Of a stretch of 64,000 nt of DNA, positions 5,850 through 17,236 are shown piece after piece. Each line of letters starts with the position of its first letter. Position 1 is the stretch's first letter. A program made the position numbers and the translations under genes. This DNA comes from Spirochaetes bacterium ADurb.Bin133 (GTDB lineage Bacteria > Spirochaetota > GWE2-31-10 > MWDO01), in contig MWDO01000004.1 of assembly GCA_002070605.1 (NCBI GenBank), forward strand, positions 8,184-72,183, read 5' to 3'. The notes below the pieces were generated by a model. That model did not search any database, was not told the origin of the DNA, and saw only the letters and a program-made list of their open reading frames with translations.

Positions 5850-6365
5850 TTAGGTAGAGTGGACGTATTTGGGATAATTTTCGATTACGAGGGCGTATAA
5901 TAGCCGTTTTTGAGCGGCGATACTCAACAGTTGTGTCATTTTACCCAAAAAGTCTTTTTCCACTTTATCAATCCTTAATTTCTTACCAACAAGCTCAAGA
6001 AATCCTTCCAACCCGTATTTCATAACGCCGTTATAAAAAAACAGTATGATATCGCGGACTATCGAAGCTATACAGAATTCGTTATACAAGGAATGCCATT
6101 TTTTTATTTTTAAATAGTCCGCTTCGCTAATTCTAAGGTATTTATCCAGCCTTTTATCGTCGGAGTTATCTATAACGGCGTATTCGGAGCGGCAATTTCC
6201 GATTATTCTTTTCATCTTTAGGACTTTTTTGTCAATAAGGCGAAACATAGTTTCAAACAGTTTGCTGAACGTATTAATTTTGAACTCTTTTAGTAGAAAA
6301 TCTATGACATTGGTATTCATAGATTCCGATACTATAAAATGGAACAAATGTTTTTTGTTTTTCAT
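5850..6365 (-). CDS. Hypothetical protein
   Basis: A 171-codon ORF with protein-like composition. No recognisable motif. Confidence 0.4.
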   Translation of the reverse strand: MKNKKHLFHFIVSESMNTNVIDFLLKEFKINTFSKLFETMFRLIDKKVLKMKRIIGNCRSEYAVIDNSDDKRLDKYLRISEADYLKIKKWHSLYNEFCIASIVRDIILFFYNGVMKYGLEGFLELVGKKLRIDKVEKDFLGKMTQLLSIAAQKRLLYALVIENYPKYVHST

Positions 6366-6445
6366 AAAATTTTCTCCTTTTTCTTTTATATATATAACAA
6401 TTAAAAGTAGAAAACGTTATACAAAAACTTGTATAAATTTTTAGA

Positions 6446-6527
6446 AAATAACAAATAATTTACTAATCAAAAATATTTTTCTCATATGTGTCAATTTTCT
6501 CTTCTACTACCAACAAACCGTTGGGGG
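6446..6527. repeat. Partial copy of the MITE-like element: internal conserved block plus one CATATGTGTCAA unit and a degenerate right end
   Basis: AATAATTTACTAATCAAAAATATTTTTCTCATATGTGTCAATTTT matches the conserved internal block seen at 12166, 16296 and 60881. It ends CAAACCGTTGGGGG. Confidence 0.5.
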
Positions 6528-9208: not shown

Positions 9209-11155
9209 ATGGGAAAATCAGTTGCGCAAAAAATCTTAGAAATTCATATAGTCGAAGGGGAGTATAAATACGGCTCTGAAATAGGAATCAAAATCGATCA
9301 AACCTTGACTCAAGACGCTACGGGAACTCTCGCATATCTTCAATTTGAGGCGATGAACGTTCCAAAAGTACAGACTGAAATATCGGTAAGTTACGTCGAC
9401 CACAACACTTTACAGACGGATAATAGGAATATGGACGATCATCTTTATCTTCAATCGGTAGCTTCCAAATACGGCATATACTATTCGAGACCCGGCAACG
9501 GAATTTGTCATCAAGTACATCTTGAAAGATTTGCCAGACCCGGTTATACTCTTTTAGGATCCGACTCGCATACTCCGACTTCGGGGGGGATCGGAATGAT
9601 AGCGATCGGCTCCGGCGGACTAGACGTAGCTTGCGCTATGGCGGGCGAGCCGTTTTTCTTGAAAGTTCCAAAAGTTATTAATATAAAATTAACGGGCAAA
9701 CTCAAACCGTGGGCGTCGGCAAAAGATATAATTTTACGCATATTAAAGATCAAAAGCGTAAAAGGCGGCGTCGGCGCTATAATAGAATATTCGGGCGACG
9801 GGCTTAAAAATCTATCCGTTCCTGAAAGAGCCGTTATTACTAATATGGGCGCCGAACTCGGGGCTACGACTTCAATTTTTCCCTCCGACGAGATAACGCT
9901 GGATTTTATGAAAAGACAGGGAAGAGAACATCAATTTGTAGAGATAAAAGCGGACGAAGACGCGATATACGACGAAACGATAGAAATCGACTTATCCTCT
10001 ATCGTAACTTACGCGGCGGCTCCACACTCGCCCGATAACGTAAAAAAAATCTCGGATTTAAGCGCTGTCAAAGTAAATCAGGTTTCGATAGGAAGTTGCA
10101 CAAATTCAAGTTATAGAGACTTATGGATCGTCGGAAAAATCCTCGAAGGGAAAGTTATAGCAAAAAACGTCTCTCTGACTATATCCCCCGGATCAAAACA
10201 GGTTTTTTCTATGATATCGAGAGACGGAACGCTAACTAGACTAATAGACGCCGGAGCGAGAATATTGGAATGCGCTTGCGGACCCTGCATAGGAATGGGT
10301 CAATCTCCAAACAGCGCCGGAGTATCTCTTAGGACTTTCAACAGGAATTTTGAAGGACGAAGCGGAACTAAAGACGCCGAAATATATCTCGTCAGTCCCG
10401 AAGTAGCGGCGATATCGGCTCTTAACGGGTTCATATCGGATCCGATGGAACATCTGGGAATTATGCCGGAATTTAAGTTCCCCGACGAATTTGTTATCGA
10501 CGACAGGTTTATTATACCGCCCGCTATCGAGCCGGACAAAGTCCAAATTATCCGGGGACCGGGTATCAAACCGCTTCCCGAACAGAAACCCTTGCCGGAT
10601 TCGATCGAGGCAAAAGTTATAATAAAAGTCGGGGACAATATTACGACGGATCATATACTTCCGGCCGGAGCAAAAGTATTGCCGTATAGGTCTGATATAC
10701 CAAAAATAAGCGAGTTCGCATTCGGCTCTATAGACCCCGAATTTTACAAAAAAGCGTTGAAAGAAAAAACGGGCGTCATAGTCGGGGGTGAAAATTACGG
10801 TCAAGGTTCGTCGAGAGAGCACGCCGCTCTTGCGCCCAAATACCTCGGCATAGCCGTCGTAATTGCGAAATCCTTTGCCAGAATTCATAAAGCGAATTTG
10901 ATCAACTTCGGCATAGTTCCTATGACTTTTGAAAACCCTGGCGACTACGACTCGATCAAAGAGACCGACCTTGTAAAGATATCTTCAATCAAAAGCGATA
11001 TTCAAGGGTCTAAGAAATGCGAAGCGTATATAAACGATAAGAAAATTATTTTAAACGTCGATCTTTCAGAAAGAGATATACAAATACTCCTGGACGGCGG
11101 AACGCTTGCGAATATAAAAAATAAATTTAGCAAAATAAAGATAGTCGAAGGATAA
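9209..11155 (+). CDS. Aconitate hydratase of the short (~650 aa) type, aconitase/IPM-isomerase family
   Basis: Aconitase-family motifs GSDSHT, GSCTNSS and ACGPC(I)GMGQ, plus a swivel-domain SSREHAA. ATG at 9209 is chosen over the in-frame TTG at 9176 because it follows the korC stop at 9204. Confidence 0.85.
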   Translation: MGKSVAQKILEIHIVEGEYKYGSEIGIKIDQTLTQDATGTLAYLQFEAMNVPKVQTEISVSYVDHNTLQTDNRNMDDHLYLQSVASKYGIYYSRPGNGICHQVHLERFARPGYTLLGSDSHTPTSGGIGMIAIGSGGLDVACAMAGEPFFLKVPKVINIKLTGKLKPWASAKDIILRILKIKSVKGGVGAIIEYSGDGLKNLSVPERAVITNMGAELGATTSIFPSDEITLDFMKRQGREHQFVEIKADEDAIYDETIEIDLSSIVTYAAAPHSPDNVKKISDLSAVKVNQVSIGSCTNSSYRDLWIVGKILEGKVIAKNVSLTISPGSKQVFSMISRDGTLTRLIDAGARILECACGPCIGMGQSPNSAGVSLRTFNRNFEGRSGTKDAEIYLVSPEVAAISALNGFISDPMEHLGIMPEFKFPDEFVIDDRFIIPPAIEPDKVQIIRGPGIKPLPEQKPLPDSIEAKVIIKVGDNITTDHILPAGAKVLPYRSDIPKISEFAFGSIDPEFYKKALKEKTGVIVGGENYGQGSSREHAALAPKYLGIAVVIAKSFARIHKANLINFGIVPMTFENPGDYDSIKETDLVKISSIKSDIQGSKKCEAYINDKKIILNVDLSERDIQILLDGGTLANIKNKFSKIKIVEG

Positions 11156-11160
11156 ATGGG

Positions 11161-11318
11161 GGCTAGGGCGGGCGCTTTTGATCGTCCTGAACCAAGCCGA
11201 AGGACGACGCATATGATGTTCAAGGAGGGAATTGACACATATGCGCCGCGCTACGCCTTGATGAAAAAATTGACACATATGTAACAAATATTTTTTATTC
11301 CCCAAAAAAACCGACGGA
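11161..11318. repeat. MITE-like element copy with three CATATG units and a clear right end TTCCCCAAAAAAACCGACGG. It forms the left flank of the PIN cassette.
   Basis: Contains GACGCATATG and two TTGACACATATG units. The 44-bp block at 11238..11281 is identical to 12203..12246. Confidence 0.6.
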
Positions 11319-11502
11319 TTACGTCTGTTTTTTACTTTTTTATTGAATAAATAATATGTTTTTGTTAGTATATAACAGTTTATGTAAAATGGTAAAAATA
11401 TTTTAAAAGATGAGATTATAAGTATAATAAAGGAGTCGTTATGCTCGCAAAAAACCTTTTCAATGTAATCTCCAAGATAAAGGCGCAATTGGAGCGCAAT
11501 TT

Positions 11503-11949
11503 ATGAGTAAAATTAAAATTTATCTGGATAATTGCTGTTTTAACAGACCTTACGACGACCAGAAACAACATAAAATTTTTCTTGAAACGGAAGCTAAACT
11601 TTTTATACAGCAGAGAATTAAAAATGGGGAATTTGACCTTATCTGGAGTTTTATTCTTGATTATGAAAATTCTGCAAATCCTGATATTGAAGCAAAAAAA
11701 GCTATTCAATTATGGGAAAATATTGCAATTAAATCAATTTTATTGTCTCCTGAATTACAAAGTAATGCAAAAATTTTCAATAATAAAGGTTTTGGAATAA
11801 AAGATTCGCTACATATAGCCTGCGCTATCGAATCAGGAGCAAAATATTTTTTAACAACTGATAAGGGAATATTGAATAAAAAACATTTTATCAGTAAAAT
11901 AACAATATTAAATCCTGTGGATTTTATAGTATTGGAGGAAAACTTATGA
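11503..11949 (+). CDS. PIN-domain protein (VapC-like putative toxin ribonuclease)
   Basis: Carries a conserved N-terminal acidic residue in IYLDNCCF and the typical later motif DSLHIACAIESGAKYFLTTDKGI. Low GC relative to its neighbours. Confidence 0.75.
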   Translation: MSKIKIYLDNCCFNRPYDDQKQHKIFLETEAKLFIQQRIKNGEFDLIWSFILDYENSANPDIEAKKAIQLWENIAIKSILLSPELQSNAKIFNNKGFGIKDSLHIACAIESGAKYFLTTDKGILNKKHFISKITILNPVDFIVLEENL

Positions 11950-12155
11950 AAACAGATGCAATAATAAAACAAGTTGCTTTTAAGGCAATATTTGAAAAAC
12001 TTGATATTGTTGAAGCTGAAAGGTTTATAGCATTGATCAAAAGGGATAATTTTGATTATACAGAGTGGAGAAAAAATTTATGGGAAGATTTAACTATTGA
12101 AGAGTTGTCTAAAAATGCGATGGATTATTGCGATAAAAGGCAGGGATCCTGTTAG
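11946..12155 (+). CDS. Small protein translationally coupled to the PIN gene (ATGA overlap). Putative cognate partner or antitoxin.
   Basis: A 69-aa ORF with a 4-nt overlap. Its stop lies inside the degenerate left end of the next repeat element. Confidence 0.4.
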   Translation: MKTDAIIKQVAFKAIFEKLDIVEAERFIALIKRDNFDYTEWRKNLWEDLTIEELSKNAMDYCDKRQGSC

Positions 12156-12299
12156 TTTTTTAGGGAATAAAAAAATAATTTACTAATTTAAAATATTTGT
12201 TTCATATGCGCCGCGCTACGCCTTGATGAAAAAATTGACACATATGCGTCAAAAAAAATCGCCCATATGCGTCAAATTTCCAAAAAACCGACGGCGCGA
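12148..12299. repeat. MITE-like element copy forming the right flank of the PIN cassette
   Basis: Degenerate left end CCTGTTAGTTTTTTAGGG, a conserved internal block, three CATATG units, and right end TTCCAAAAAACCGACGGCGCG. Confidence 0.6.
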
Positions 12300-12395
12300 G
12301 CAAAAGGGATAATTAATTTGATTTTCAATAAAAAAGGATTATAATGTATGATAATAAAAATAAAATTCGAGGGAGAAAAGGAATTCTTTATATCT

Positions 12396-13108: not shown

Positions 13109-13513
13109 ATGATTTTTCCAAACTTTATTTCCGATTGGGACGACTCTCTGTTGCGGGACTCTGAAATTACTCTGTATATTAAAGACGATATTAGAAATTT
13201 TAACGAATTTTATAAAATATCGTCGGTAAATAACGTATGTTTTTTCAACGCGATAATTAATTCGAACGATAAAGAGAAGAAAATTTCGCTAAATGTTGAA
13301 AATAGCGTTTATAAAAACATTTGGTCAAAAATTTTAGAAGAAAAAACGTCTCTAATAAAAAGTATCTATGTTTTTTCATCGGGAGAAACGGTATCGTACT
13401 TATTTACGTTTAGATATTTTGATAAAATAAAAAAGTCGTCCGGTATTGGCAATATTTTCCAAAAAGATCTGTTGTTTTTATATAACTCTTTTAAAAAAAT
13501 CTCGGATATGTAA
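13109..13513 (+). CDS. Hypothetical protein
   Basis: A 134-codon ORF co-directional with the upstream gene. No motif recognised. Confidence 0.35.
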   Translation: MIFPNFISDWDDSLLRDSEITLYIKDDIRNFNEFYKISSVNNVCFFNAIINSNDKEKKISLNVENSVYKNIWSKILEEKTSLIKSIYVFSSGETVSYLFTFRYFDKIKKSSGIGNIFQKDLLFLYNSFKKISDM

Positions 13514-16197: not shown

Positions 16198-16271
16198 AAA
16201 TCATCCTGAAACATCTTTTTTTTTGTAATAGCATTATTTAATAAGAAATAAAAGGAATTTATCAAAAATTT

Positions 16272-16434
16272 GCGCGCCCCGTCGGTTTTTTGGGGGATAA
16301 AAAATAATTTGCTAGTTAAAAATATTTGTTTCATATGTGTCAATTTTAATAGGCGCCTCAATCCGACGCATATGTGTCAATTTATCCTTAGCTCCATATG
16401 TGTCAATTTTTCTCCCGCCCCAAAAAACCGACGG
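16272..16434. mobile_element. Complete MITE-like element with terminal inverted repeats and three CATATGTGTCAA units
   Basis: Left end GCGCGCCCCGTCGGTTTTTTGGGGG and right end CCCGCCCCAAAAAACCGACGG are inverted repeats of each other. The conserved internal block GATAAAAAATAATTTGCTAGTTAAAAATATTTGTTTCATATGTGTCAATTTT is present. Confidence 0.65.
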
Positions 16435-16447
16435 AGTATAAAATTTG

Positions 16448-17236
16448 CTAAATATCCGCTTTTACTTTCCACGCTTTTTGTATCGGGGTAAGTTTTCCTT
16501 GAGACCATAATAACAATAAATTTTTCAAGTCCTCGTTTTTAAAAGTTATTGATTCTCCTTTTTTTAATACGGAAATTTTATCTTCTATTGCTAAATAACT
16601 TTTCGGAATTAGGTCTCTAAACTCTTTGCTCTCGACAATGTCTTGCAACGGCTTGGCGGGAATCATTTTTTCATTATAGGCTATTTTATAAAATTCCTGC
16701 GAGATACCGTTGCCCTTGGTAATAGAATCTACAGCGACCGTTTTTAATTTAAGATTATTGATAAGGGCAAGACGATATTTATACTCTTCCGCCGATATAT
16801 ACTCTCCGTACGAGTGAAAGGATTGGTTTTTGGAAAAAACAAAACCGTTTGTTACGAGGCTTCCGTCTTTATTTATATTTGAAGTTCCCTCTTTAGAAAA
16901 TATTTTTGATTTATCCGCAACGTCGGTATTATTTACAGTTTTTGTTAAGGTTTTAGCTATCGTCGTCGCAGTCGAGATTATTTCGGAGGTCTCTTTAATA
17001 TCCGACAAATCTTTTTGGATTTTTTCAACGTCTATTATTTCATTTTTTATCTTTTTTAAGTCGTTATCTTTCAATACTTTGGACTCGATTACTTTATTTG
17101 GAAAATTTATAGAGTAGTTGTCGCCTTTGTTTAATCCGAACCAATTGAAAAAATATATTCCGACAATAAAAATAATCGACAATAAAACCGCGCCTAAAAG
17201 AGAAAGTATAATAAGAATAAAACGCTTTGATATCAT
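16448..17236 (-). CDS. Hypothetical membrane-anchored protein
   Basis: N-terminal transmembrane helix ILIILSLLGAVLLSIIFIVGIYFF. K/E-rich. Confidence 0.45.
   Translation of the reverse strand: MISKRFILIILSLLGAVLLSIIFIVGIYFFNWFGLNKGDNYSINFPNKVIESKVLKDNDLKKIKNEIIDVEKIQKDLSDIKETSEIISTATTIAKTLTKTVNNTDVADKSKIFSKEGTSNINKDGSLVTNGFVFSKNQSFHSYGEYISAEEYKYRLALINNLKLKTVAVDSITKGNGISQEFYKIAYNEKMIPAKPLQDIVESKEFRDLIPKSYLAIEDKISVLKKGESITFKNEDLKNLLLLWSQGKLTPIQKAWKVKADI

Follow-up and report, generated by a model that had tools for sequence, protein, structure and literature searches.

The PIN-domain gene and the small gene coupled to it on this contig, from an uncultured spirochaete of anaerobic digesters, form a horizontally acquired two-gene cassette, which occupies a cargo hot spot with an aconitase gene on one side and a conserved hypothetical operon on the other. 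We consider it likely, with a probability of about 0.6, that the repeat elements flanking this acquired cassette are its neighbours rather than its vehicle, and that the 44-bp block shared by both elements is a local copy of a repeat module. The analysis concerned a window of 64,000 nucleotides, the whole stretch of DNA available for study. A sequence-only reading had described the genes as a passenger cassette carried between, or inserted into, members of the repeat family. The acquired insert stands, being supported by the alignment breakpoints, the alternative cargo of sister taxa, the lowest GC3 and an intact active site, whereas carriage by, or insertion into, the repeats does not. For the claim of a repeat-borne passenger, the result is therefore largely deflationary.

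Empty and alternatively occupied versions of the junction were found via homologs of the downstream 248-aa protein, in sister taxa with 84-88% nucleotide identity in the flanking genes. In L113-115, the aconitase gene is followed by a 47-aa ORF and then hyp232, with no cassette; in L110, an MNT-HepT pair takes the place of the PIN cassette; and in L111, the junction contains a beta-lactamase-family gene and a 258-aa gene. Hence the cassette-free junction that the earlier reading had proposed seeking in relatives does exist, and it lacks the repeats as well. Homology with the sister taxa ends at the last aconitase codons (~11131) and restarts at ~12303, at the promoter of the next gene, where all three sister taxa share AAAG(G/A)(G/T)ATAATTAATTTGATTTTCAA. 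This promoter (TTGATT-16-TATAAT, 12318-12345) is the best promoter match of the region, at 10/12 positions. The spacer that follows the left breakpoint has no match in the window, nor in 931 kb of other family-bearing DNA. A scan of a genome collection with the aconitase protein was useless for finding an empty site, because it returned distant relatives (at most 77% identity) without synteny on either side, and the only close match (96%) stops within the aconitase gene. Here, a chromosomal cargo hot spot can be seen in clean natural form: in taxa that have diverged by only ~13%, the same junction is empty in some, and is occupied in others by the PIN module, by MNT-HepT or by a gene pair of the beta-lactamase family.

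Table. Features of the cassette locus, in window coordinates, with the basis of each assignment
Feature	Position	Strand	Basis or remark
Left breakpoint, variable 3' tail of aconitase gene	11131..11155	+	Sister alignment good to AAATTTAGC, then breaks
Unique GC-rich spacer, 7-bp stem TCGTCCT/AGGACGA	11156..11204	.	No family homology
Left repeat element, type-1 to type-2 polarity, outer inverted repeat missing	11205..11323	+	Aligns with complete elements at 34.5 and 39.6 kb
44-mer copy 1, native family orientation	11238..11281	+	Single internal module bounded by CATATG palindromes
Cassette leader	11324..11502	+	Sequence reading and promoter scan
PIN-domain nuclease (putative toxin), 148 aa	11503..11949	+	PF01850 match, acidic residues, AF2 model
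69-aa partner (putative antitoxin)	11946..12155	+	Translationally coupled; final codons and stop inside right element
Right repeat element, complete, polarity opposite to left element	12144..12301	-	Reverse complement aligns with left element, E34 and E39
44-mer copy 2, inverted relative to its own element's polarity	12203..12246	+	1/63 junctions
23-bp unit CATATGCGTCAAAAAAAATCGCC, present or absent between strains	12241..12263	+	Deleted in L108
Right breakpoint and conserved promoter of next gene	12302..12345	+	Homology with all three sister taxa restarts

Both of the ORFs originally claimed are present, and they overlap by the 4 nt of an ATGA. Their AT-richness was confirmed quantitatively against the 48 long ORFs of the window (mean GC 37.2%, sd 4.0; mean GC3 39.0%, sd 5.4), among which the PIN gene has both the lowest GC (27.3%) and the lowest GC3 (19.5%). 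The 69-aa gene is too short for inclusion in that set, and its GC3 (25.7%) falls ~2.5 sd under the window mean. GC3 is the discriminating measure, because the downstream hypothetical gene at 13109-13513 is low in total GC (27.9%) but ordinary in GC3 (33.3%). The leader upstream of the PIN gene matches neither the sister taxa nor other repeat-family loci; it contains a promoter-like site at 11362-11390, identified by a promoter scan, and a 21-codon upstream ORF (11441-11506), with a strong ribosome-binding site, AAAGGAG. The TGA of this ORF overlaps the ATG of the PIN gene. As a candidate antitoxin remnant it was set aside, being too short to judge, and no conserved gene lies 5' of PIN in homologous loci.

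The first gene encodes a VapC-like PIN protein with an intact acidic active site, and is predicted to be a nuclease. It passes the PF01850 threshold narrowly, at 27.0 bits relative to a cut-off of 23.6 (residues 6-123). The earlier reading had made the presence of catalytic acidic residues a check on this assignment, and all four are intact, with D9, E28, D101 and D120 being invariant in an alignment of 30 sequences sharing 49-63% identity with the query. The AF2 model has a pLDDT of 85, and its 16 best Foldseek matches in the PDB are all PIN or VapC proteins, at a weak level of similarity (E 3e-3 to 0.1, TM ~0.5). The protein has 4652 homologs, distributed across many phyla and on plasmids, the closest being 65% identical. 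Neither cassette protein had any match in PADLOC, PHROGs or NCBIfam, the PADLOC search assigning the cassette to no defined defence system. Profile searches of the PDB found no solved structure resembling the PIN protein or its partner by sequence, and an Rfam search returned no match above chance.

The 69-aa partner is a four-helix protein without a recognised fold. It matches no Pfam model, and has neither a known DNA-binding domain (RHH, AbrB, Phd/YefM or HTH) nor a known antitoxin fold. Hence the label of antitoxin derives solely from gene coupling and co-conservation. The closest relative of the partner is 77-80% identical, and 1494 representatives (50% identity level) match the partner profile. 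Residues conserved in the partner include R26, R33, D37, Y38 and W41. A homolog of the partner lies directly downstream of the PIN gene at all four of the distant metagenome loci compared, overlapping it by 4 or 11 nt, and a same-sized gene occupies this position at both of the plasmid loci read, from Planktothrix and Butyrivibrio. Therefore the gene order, previously described as atypical, is so relative to canonical VapBC, but not within its own PIN family, where toxin-first is the conserved arrangement. Judged from these sequences, PIN-first order is a fixed rule of a large, uncurated family, of which we found neither a characterised member nor a published study of the pair.

The gene pair can best be described as a toxin-antitoxin-like module, in which the small protein would most likely bind and neutralise the nuclease. 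Its likeness to VapBC systems of the PF01850 type lies in the small PIN nuclease with four acidic active-site residues, the two-gene operon with a 4-nt ATGA overlap, and the scattered, horizontally mobile distribution that includes plasmids and hot spots for defence genes and other cargo. It differs in placing the toxin gene first, whereas canonical VapBC has the antitoxin gene upstream; in a partner without RHH, AbrB, Phd, HTH or any detectable relative of known structure; and in a PIN protein that barely clears the Pfam threshold and matches no NCBIfam model. Toxins are also encoded upstream of their antitoxins in the reversed-order families HigBA, HicAB and MqsRA. The toxins of these families have RelE-like or HicA folds, and their antitoxins bind DNA through HTH or zinc-ribbon domains; here, the likeness is in the order, and the difference in the toxin being a PIN domain. 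The pair thus departs from canonical VapBC twice, in its gene order and in a partner without a known antitoxin fold, and if it is a real toxin-antitoxin system, it would represent a new class of antitoxin for PIN toxins.

The same two departures also favour a reading outside toxin-antitoxin biology, in which a PIN RNase is joined by a small specificity or regulatory subunit, and serves in defence or RNA processing without poisoning its own cell. Genomic context offers this reading some support: the downstream gene of the Planktothrix plasmid is located between hsdS and hsdR, within a type I restriction-modification operon, and other PIN homologs adjoin restriction-modification or MNT-HepT genes. 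Additionally, a published classification of PIN domains places some PF01850 subgroups in non-toxin-antitoxin contexts with function unknown (PMC5499597). However, tight coupling through a 4-nt overlap, strict co-inheritance of both genes across phyla, a scattered and mobile spread, and a hot spot that also hosts MNT-HepT are all typical of toxin-antitoxin systems, and the lack of PADLOC matches gives no link to a defined defence system. We therefore treat the alternative as unlikely, while giving it appreciable weight.

The repeats that flank the cassette belong to a lineage-specific, modular and mobile MITE-like family. Its members have inverted ends, CCGTCGGTTTTTTGGGG, and internal TTGACACATATG boxes, of which the window contains 39, relative to 0.05 expected. 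These boxes are distributed over ~12 element loci in 64 kb, the elements being short, non-coding and multi-copy, and digester and sludge metagenomes yielded more than 118 further family-bearing stretches. By contrast, the syntenic DNA of sister taxa has no boxes over 12.7, 11.7 and 7.4 kb. Mobility is demonstrated by the copy at 16274-16439, a clean filled site flanked by an 8-9 bp duplication, AAAATTTG(C), where three sister taxa have the site empty and uninterrupted. The copy at 34.5 kb has terminal inverted repeats, GGCGCCCGTCGGTTTTTTGGG paired with CCCAAAAACCGACGGGGCGCC. Elsewhere, a unit of ~46 bp (46-47 bp), to which the 44-mer is homologous, builds tandem arrays that are kilobases long, and the region upstream of a multi-copy 171-aa gene matches the type-2 end sequence of the repeat. 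This gene product has no match in Pfam, NCBIfam or the PDB, and no recognised transposase was found for the family. The element at 6438-6505 was also compared with L110, as a second empty site, and the divergence was too great to read.

Such elements invite comparison with the BOX elements of pneumococci, which have the structure boxA-boxB(n)-boxC, and with the Correia elements of Neisseria. In each case the elements are short, non-coding and intergenic, occur in many copies, and have inverted ends, promoter-like ends and internal units that vary in number; their presence or absence varies among close relatives. The family described here differs in being unrelated in sequence, in having its ~46-bp unit also arranged in kilobase-long tandem arrays, and in having one end that matches the upstream region of the 171-aa gene. 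As a young modular family in an uncultured spirochaete, the flanking repeats are useful for strain typing and for studies of promoter remodelling.

The two copies beside the cassette have opposite polarity, such that the promoter-like type-2 ends of both face the cassette, that of the left element being TTGACA-17-TTTTAT. The left copy had been described as supplying only a right-type end, and this end, CCCCAAAAAAACCGACGG, is intact, placed here at 11300-11318; family-like sequence nevertheless begins only at ~11205, the CCGTCGGTTTTTTGG end having been replaced by unrelated sequence, and neither a left end nor a target duplication was identified for this element. The right copy had likewise been credited with a degenerate left end overlapping the stop codon of the small gene. 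That end, GGATCCTGTTAG (12144-12155), is where it was said to be, but the element is in fact complete, with both of its ends. It shares its architecture with the mobile copy at 16274-16439, and its type-2 end, which faces the cassette, is degenerate, with CCTGTTAG replacing CCCGTCGG. A candidate target duplication, AAAAGG at 12135-12140 and 12302-12307, is short and lies 2 nt out of register relative to the reference copy.

The exact 44-mer, CATATGCGCCGCGCTACGCCTTGATGAAAAAATTGACACATATG, occurs exactly twice, with both copies on the forward strand, as had been reported, and shuffled sequences gave 0.00 expected matches, even with three mismatches allowed. Direct orientation is only part of the description, as the elements that hold the two copies run in opposite polarity. 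Hence one copy is inverted within its own element: among 63 box-to-linker junctions, only that of the right element has GCGCGGCG instead of TTGACR before CATATG. With the module inverted, the outward promoter-like end loses TTGACA, its -35-like hexamer. The 32-mer core of the 44-mer was found at this locus alone among 235 loci fetched, and in none of 118 other family-bearing stretches; the best other match to the full block, in 931 kb containing 1040 boxes, was 37/44. A scan of a metagenome collection for the core also returned zero, which is a false negative, since contigs of samples in that collection carry it.

Since the right copy alone has the 44-mer reversed with respect to the polarity of its element, we favour a module copy made locally and at a later time. 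Most likely, the module would have been copied from the left element into the right one, box to box, once both elements were in place, probably through gene conversion or template switching. It is unusual for gene conversion to cross 32 nt of heterologous sequence when only 6-12 nt of homology flank it; an enzyme that works at the boxes may have taken part. A bolder version of this idea, which we regard as quite unlikely, has the family's enzyme acting at TTGACACATATG boxes to shuffle modules between nearby copies, with the 44-mer as a fresh footprint of this activity, and the inverted pair of elements as a unit that is, or was, mobilisable. If true, the family would capture, move and supply promoters to small accessory operons in this lineage. 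The cassette may have come first and the repeats later.

Models in which the repeats were the vehicle, whether as a composite transposon or through Campbell-type integration, are disfavoured: sister taxa swap cargo at this site despite lacking the repeat family altogether. Inverted copies of insertion sequences, as in Tn5 and Tn10, are the model for the composite version, which holds that the left element, the cassette and the right element arrived together, mobilised in trans by a transposase of the family, and that the outer left end later decayed. This would account for two family copies of inverted polarity flanking cargo in a family that is demonstrably mobile, and a weak direct repeat does lie near the outer borders (AAGGATAA at 11148-11155 and AGGGATAA at 12305-12312, matching at 7/8 positions), the left border itself being undefined. 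Yet the left element lacks its outer inverted repeat and is separated from the aconitase gene by a unique spacer of 49 nt, while occupied neighbouring intergenic spaces are common in a window with 12 element loci in 64 kb. The two elements differ in linker and end subtype, and the direct 44-mer would still require a separate event. Furthermore, in all 21 contigs read the exact PIN protein has this same context, and neither 931 kb of family loci nor the protein databases yielded a further copy of the cassette or of the composite. MITE-bounded cargo units are known, as exemplified by TIME-COMP (PMC4133298) and the MITE-flanked integrons of Acinetobacter (PMC3934969), in which two non-autonomous element copies similarly flank cargo genes. 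In such units both outer ends are intact and a target duplication encloses the entire unit, whereas here one outer end is missing, with no demonstrable duplication and no second copy. We therefore regard a composite origin as quite unlikely.

The exact 44-bp direct repeats that bracket the cassette would be explained if a circle carrying the cassette and one element recombined through this module with a resident element, the reverse reaction being excision. In L110, the MNT-HepT pair that occupies this site likewise lies between direct copies of a local sequence (69 nt, 86% identity, spacing 852). However, such a crossover demands parental elements with type-1/type-1 or type-2/type-2 ends, and the latter are without precedent among 60 type-2 ends in ~1 Mb, whereas the left and right elements both have the canonical one-of-each architecture; neither a deletion allele nor another location of the cassette was seen. 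Integration of this kind is therefore very unlikely. The least probable alternative is that of two independent insertions from one master copy, with the identity of the 44-mers reflecting descent within a subfamily. The density of elements is high, and both copies carry typical family ends, but 931 kb with 1040 boxes yielded no further copy of the exact module, the two elements differ in linker length and subtype outside a block of 44-51 nt, and the orientation of the module relative to polarity is opposite in the two copies, the inverted arrangement occurring at 1/63 junctions. An acquired cassette in a hot spot, with the repeats as neighbours and the 44-mer as a local module copy, remains the preferred reading.

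In the population sampled, the cassette is fixed. It was present in every contig extending beyond the aconitase stop: three look-ups that overlap gave 21, 20 and 22 such contigs, ~60 contig reads in all, from 15 samples or assemblies. Digester metagenomes containing this population include JGI 3300010365, 3300010347 and 3300025737, and ENA ERZ795027. No deletion allele was found among the contigs, including those retrieved by exact matches to the aconitase or the 248-aa protein, although assembled contigs cannot reveal rare excision events. The direct 44-bp repeats had been proposed as a ready substrate for excision; a rare RecA-type deletion is possible in principle, and there is no sign of it in assembled contigs. 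The predicted deletion junction is GGAATTGACA, the 44-mer and CGTCAAAAAAAA (the right flank also being given as CGTCAAAAAAAATCG), and the predicted circle junction is ATATTTGTTT, the 44-mer and TAACAAATATT. The sole structural variant among the cassette-bearing contigs is the indel of the 23-bp unit, which is missing from strain L108, whose flanking genes are ~99% identical. The same strain has a 5-bp indel at the 3' tail of the aconitase gene, giving an aconitase of 644 aa instead of 648 aa.

Comparison with relatives shows that the cassette is an insert: the aconitase/hypothetical junction is a cargo hot spot, with the PIN gene and its 69-aa partner as the cargo of the window lineage, since sister taxa hold differing cargo there and the 1.17 kb between the breakpoints has no counterpart in them. 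The organism is an uncultured member of the Spirochaetota, recurrent in metagenomes of anaerobic digesters and sludge (GCA_029567835.1 is one of its MAGs), and every same-population contig extending beyond the aconitase stop codon (21, 20 and 22 contigs in three overlapping look-ups; 15 samples or assemblies) carries the cassette at the identical position. In a same-species strain whose flanking genes are about 99% identical, just two differences occur: a repeat-unit indel of 23 bp, and one of 5 bp in the tail of aconitase. Aconitase relatives at 77% identity or below have lost synteny and are of no use for comparing the junction, and the three sister taxa, reached through homologs of the downstream 248-aa protein, share 84-88% nucleotide identity with the window across aconitase and three downstream genes. 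Their homology ends at the final aconitase codons and restarts at the next gene's conserved promoter, with junctions that are empty or differently filled, which bears out the sequence-only reading of a passenger cassette.

Features of the cassette, its flanks, the repeat family and compared loci (window coordinates unless a locus is named)
Feature	Coordinates	Description
Left breakpoint	~11131	sister homology ends
L	11205-11323	left repeat; polarity opposite to R; type-2 end intact; no outer inverted repeat
44-mer, copies	11238-11281; 12203-12246	same strand
21-codon ORF	11441-11506	MLAKNLFNVISKIKAQLERNL
PIN ORF	11503-11949	148 aa; ATGA overlap with 69-aa ORF
69-aa ORF	11946-12155	starts within end of PIN ORF via ATGA
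R	12144-12301	right repeat; complete; architecture as in 16.3-kb copy; type-2 end degenerate
23-bp unit of R	12241-12263	CATATGCGTCAAAAAAAATCGCC
Right breakpoint	~12303	sister homology restarts
Next-gene promoter	12318-12345	TTGATT-16-TATAAT, conserved
Type-1 end		inverted repeat + GGGAGAGGGGAATTGACA
Type-2 end		inverted repeat + GGGGATAAAAAATA...AAATATTTGTTTCATATG
Sister junction, L113-115		only a 47-aa HARE-HTH-like ORF fragment
Sister junction, L110		47-aa HARE-HTH-like ORF + MNT-HepT toxin-antitoxin pair
Direct repeat, L110	4946-5014; 5798-5866	852 bp apart
Sister junction, L111		beta-lactamase-family gene + 258-aa gene
Tandem arrays	L124 1-1140; L195 6600-7595; L182 8931-9663	unit CATATGTGTCAATTTTTCATCAAGGCGCGACGCGGCGCATGTAGCTC

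All the features first described from sequence (both ORFs, their ATGA overlap and the two 44-mer copies) are present, and the AT-richness ascribed to the cassette is that of a compositional outlier. Across the 48 long ORFs of the window GC is 37.2 ± 4.0% and GC3 39.0 ± 5.4%; the PIN gene is the minimum for both (27.3% and 19.5%), and the 69-aa gene has a GC3 of 25.7%. The hypothetical genes adjoining the cassette also have low overall GC, with ordinary GC3. The aconitase 3' end itself (window 11126-11155; 2300-2320 in the same-species locus L108) is polymorphic between strains, the 5-bp indel giving C-termini of ...KFSKIKIVEG or ...KFSKKS (648 or 644 aa); sister-taxon aconitases end in ...KKFSR. 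Separately, GATCAAAAGGGATAATT (12035-12051, conserved IKRDNF codons of the 69-aa gene) agrees at 16 of 17 positions with GAGCAAAAGGGATAATT (12298-12314), which lies at the right breakpoint and the promoter of the next gene. That promoter copy also occurs in sister taxa, and the match could reflect coincidence in AT-rich sequence, microhomology or a relic.

The PIN protein narrowly passes the PF01850 cut-off (27.0 bits against 23.6) and has 4652 homologs in many phyla, the nearest merely 65% identical. The acidic catalytic residues, whose absence would have counted against the sequence-only reading, are in place: D9, E28, D101 and D120 do not vary across a diverse alignment of 30 members. The top PDB matches of the predicted structure (pLDDT 85) are PIN/VapC proteins, though weak ones; sequence search detects no solved structure. 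The partner comes from a conserved family, which has the motif AERFIALIxRxxFDYTEWR and a variable C-terminal tail (141 matches in a word-indexed search; a full profile scan, at the 50% identity level, gave 1494 representatives); it is predicted to form four helices (pLDDT 83) and matches nothing in Pfam, PDB sequences or known folds. A PIN gene followed by a partner homolog, with a 4- or 11-nt overlap, recurs at four loci of unrelated genomic context (one in another Spirochaetota, one in a Deltaproteobacterium, one in a Leptospiraceae MAG and one on an unbinned contig), and distant PIN homologs carried by Planktothrix and Butyrivibrio plasmids precede an overlapping gene about 69 aa long, which RefSeq annotates as 'hypothetical protein'. 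Hence the gene order, earlier called atypical, is the rule of this PIN family rather than a local oddity. The cassette represents a PIN module with toxin-first order that is widespread and uncurated and whose partner has a fold matching no known one; coupling, co-inheritance, mobility and hot-spot residence suggest a putative type II-like toxin-antitoxin function; both the hot spot and this uncharacterised PIN-partner family merit a note. On the Planktothrix agardhii plasmid NZ_LR882945.1 (L116 1501-2137) the distant pair separates hsdS from hsdR in a type I restriction-modification operon, and in another locus, L011, the PIN pair is immediately 3' of an MNT-HepT pair and an MmeI-like methyltransferase. 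In the window a 21-codon ORF with a strong AAAGGAG ribosome-binding site ends in a TGA that overlaps the start codon of PIN (ATGA); no conserved gene precedes PIN in the homologous loci.

The flanking repeats belong to a young modular MITE-like family. Its internal box, GACRCATATG, is found 39 times in the window, where 0.05 occurrences are expected, and the matches cluster at about 12 intergenic loci. Complete copies span 97-166 bp and have inverted ends (core CCGTCGGTTTTTTGGGG) in a fixed asymmetric layout, with one to several box-bounded units between a type-1 end and a promoter-like type-2 end. The 166-bp copy at 16274-16439 is a textbook clean insertion (site 16265-16448, target duplication AAAATTTG(C)) into a site uninterrupted in the three sister taxa, and neither box nor end motif occurs in the 7-13 kb of syntenic DNA compared in them; thus the family is mobile, or was so until recently, and is lineage-specific. 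Beside the cassette, the type-2 ends of L and R both face inwards, 49 nt of unique GC-rich sequence lies upstream of L, and the degenerate end of R encodes the final codons and stop codon of the 69-aa gene. Given the element density, with similarly occupied neighbouring spaces at 4.8/6.4 kb and 48.3/52.9 kb, occupation of both spaces is not remarkable. The 23-bp unit of R is present or absent between same-species strains, so unit number is still changing. A candidate target duplication of R (AAAAGG at 12135-12140 and 12302-12307) is short, 2 nt out of register and not relied on; if true, R inserted after the cassette, and the 69-aa ORF once ended ...CDKRDN at a chromosomal TAA.

That the repeats carried the cassette, or received it, as the sequence-only reading proposed, finds no support and is unlikely. 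A composite transposon of L, cassette and R, which would require both outer ends, a duplication flanking the unit and, preferably, another copy, is a minority reading: the outer end of L is missing, near the borders there is only a weak match at 7 of 8 positions, and no second copy was found. A Campbell-type crossover inside the 44-mer, for which one parent element would need two type-1 ends and the other two type-2 ends, likewise commands minority weight. None of the 60 type-2 ends in the listed family DNA belongs to a double type-2 element, and L and R are both canonical in their present form, although a direct repeat of local sequence (69 nt, 86%) likewise encloses the MNT-HepT pair of L110. 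Flanking of cargo by direct repeats may therefore be characteristic of the hot spot. The L110 repeat derives from the 3' part of the 47-aa ORF fragment, and its right copy has diverged about as far as sister species have from each other.

L and R are instead adjacent copies of the family that appear to have exchanged one unit. The 44-mer, a single repeat unit bounded by CATATG palindromes, has exactly two copies, with none expected from shuffles. Its 32-nt core is absent from all 118 other family-bearing stretches listed; without gaps, the 44-mer is matched at best at 37/44 positions among those stretches and at 35/44 elsewhere in the window (83% over 52 nt by alignment), so the two copies are by far each other's nearest relatives. 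L and R run in opposite polarity while both copies of the 44-mer point the same way on the chromosome, so one of the two elements holds the unit inverted with respect to its own polarity. The L junction is canonical (TTGACA-CATATG-linker), whereas that of R, GCGCGGCG-CATATG-linker, is the sole exception among 63 junctions in about 1 Mb of listed family DNA, and beyond the shared block the two elements differ in linker length and subtype. The simplest history would be non-reciprocal copying of the unit from L to R, in direct chromosomal orientation, once both elements were in place. As a side effect R would have lost the TTGACA hexamer at its outward promoter-like end, which would otherwise point antisense into the cassette; any functional effect is speculation.

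A two-box pattern scan of a metagenome collection returned at least 118 stretches, those listed comprising 931 kb and 1040 boxes. Negatives of the metagenome-contig scan are unreliable for absence, as it missed an exact 32-mer present in contigs of represented samples (e.g. Ga0208694). Three other loci contain kb-long tandem arrays of the repeat unit, with at least 22 copies at a 46-47 bp period, and the cassette's 44-mer is one such unit. The window segment 5830-6505 (~670 bp) is also multi-copy, combining a 171-aa ORF (5853-6365, minus strand) with a box and linker (6438-6505). This protein, which matches nothing in Pfam, NCBIfam or PDB, may be an autonomous or box-binding component of the family. 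Among the 118 stretches listed it has 27 full-length copies (81-89% amino acid identity), 25 of them with a TTGACACATATG box no more than 200 nt upstream, and the upstream regions inspected run into type-2-end linker sequence with a promoter-like TTGACA-17-TTTAAT.
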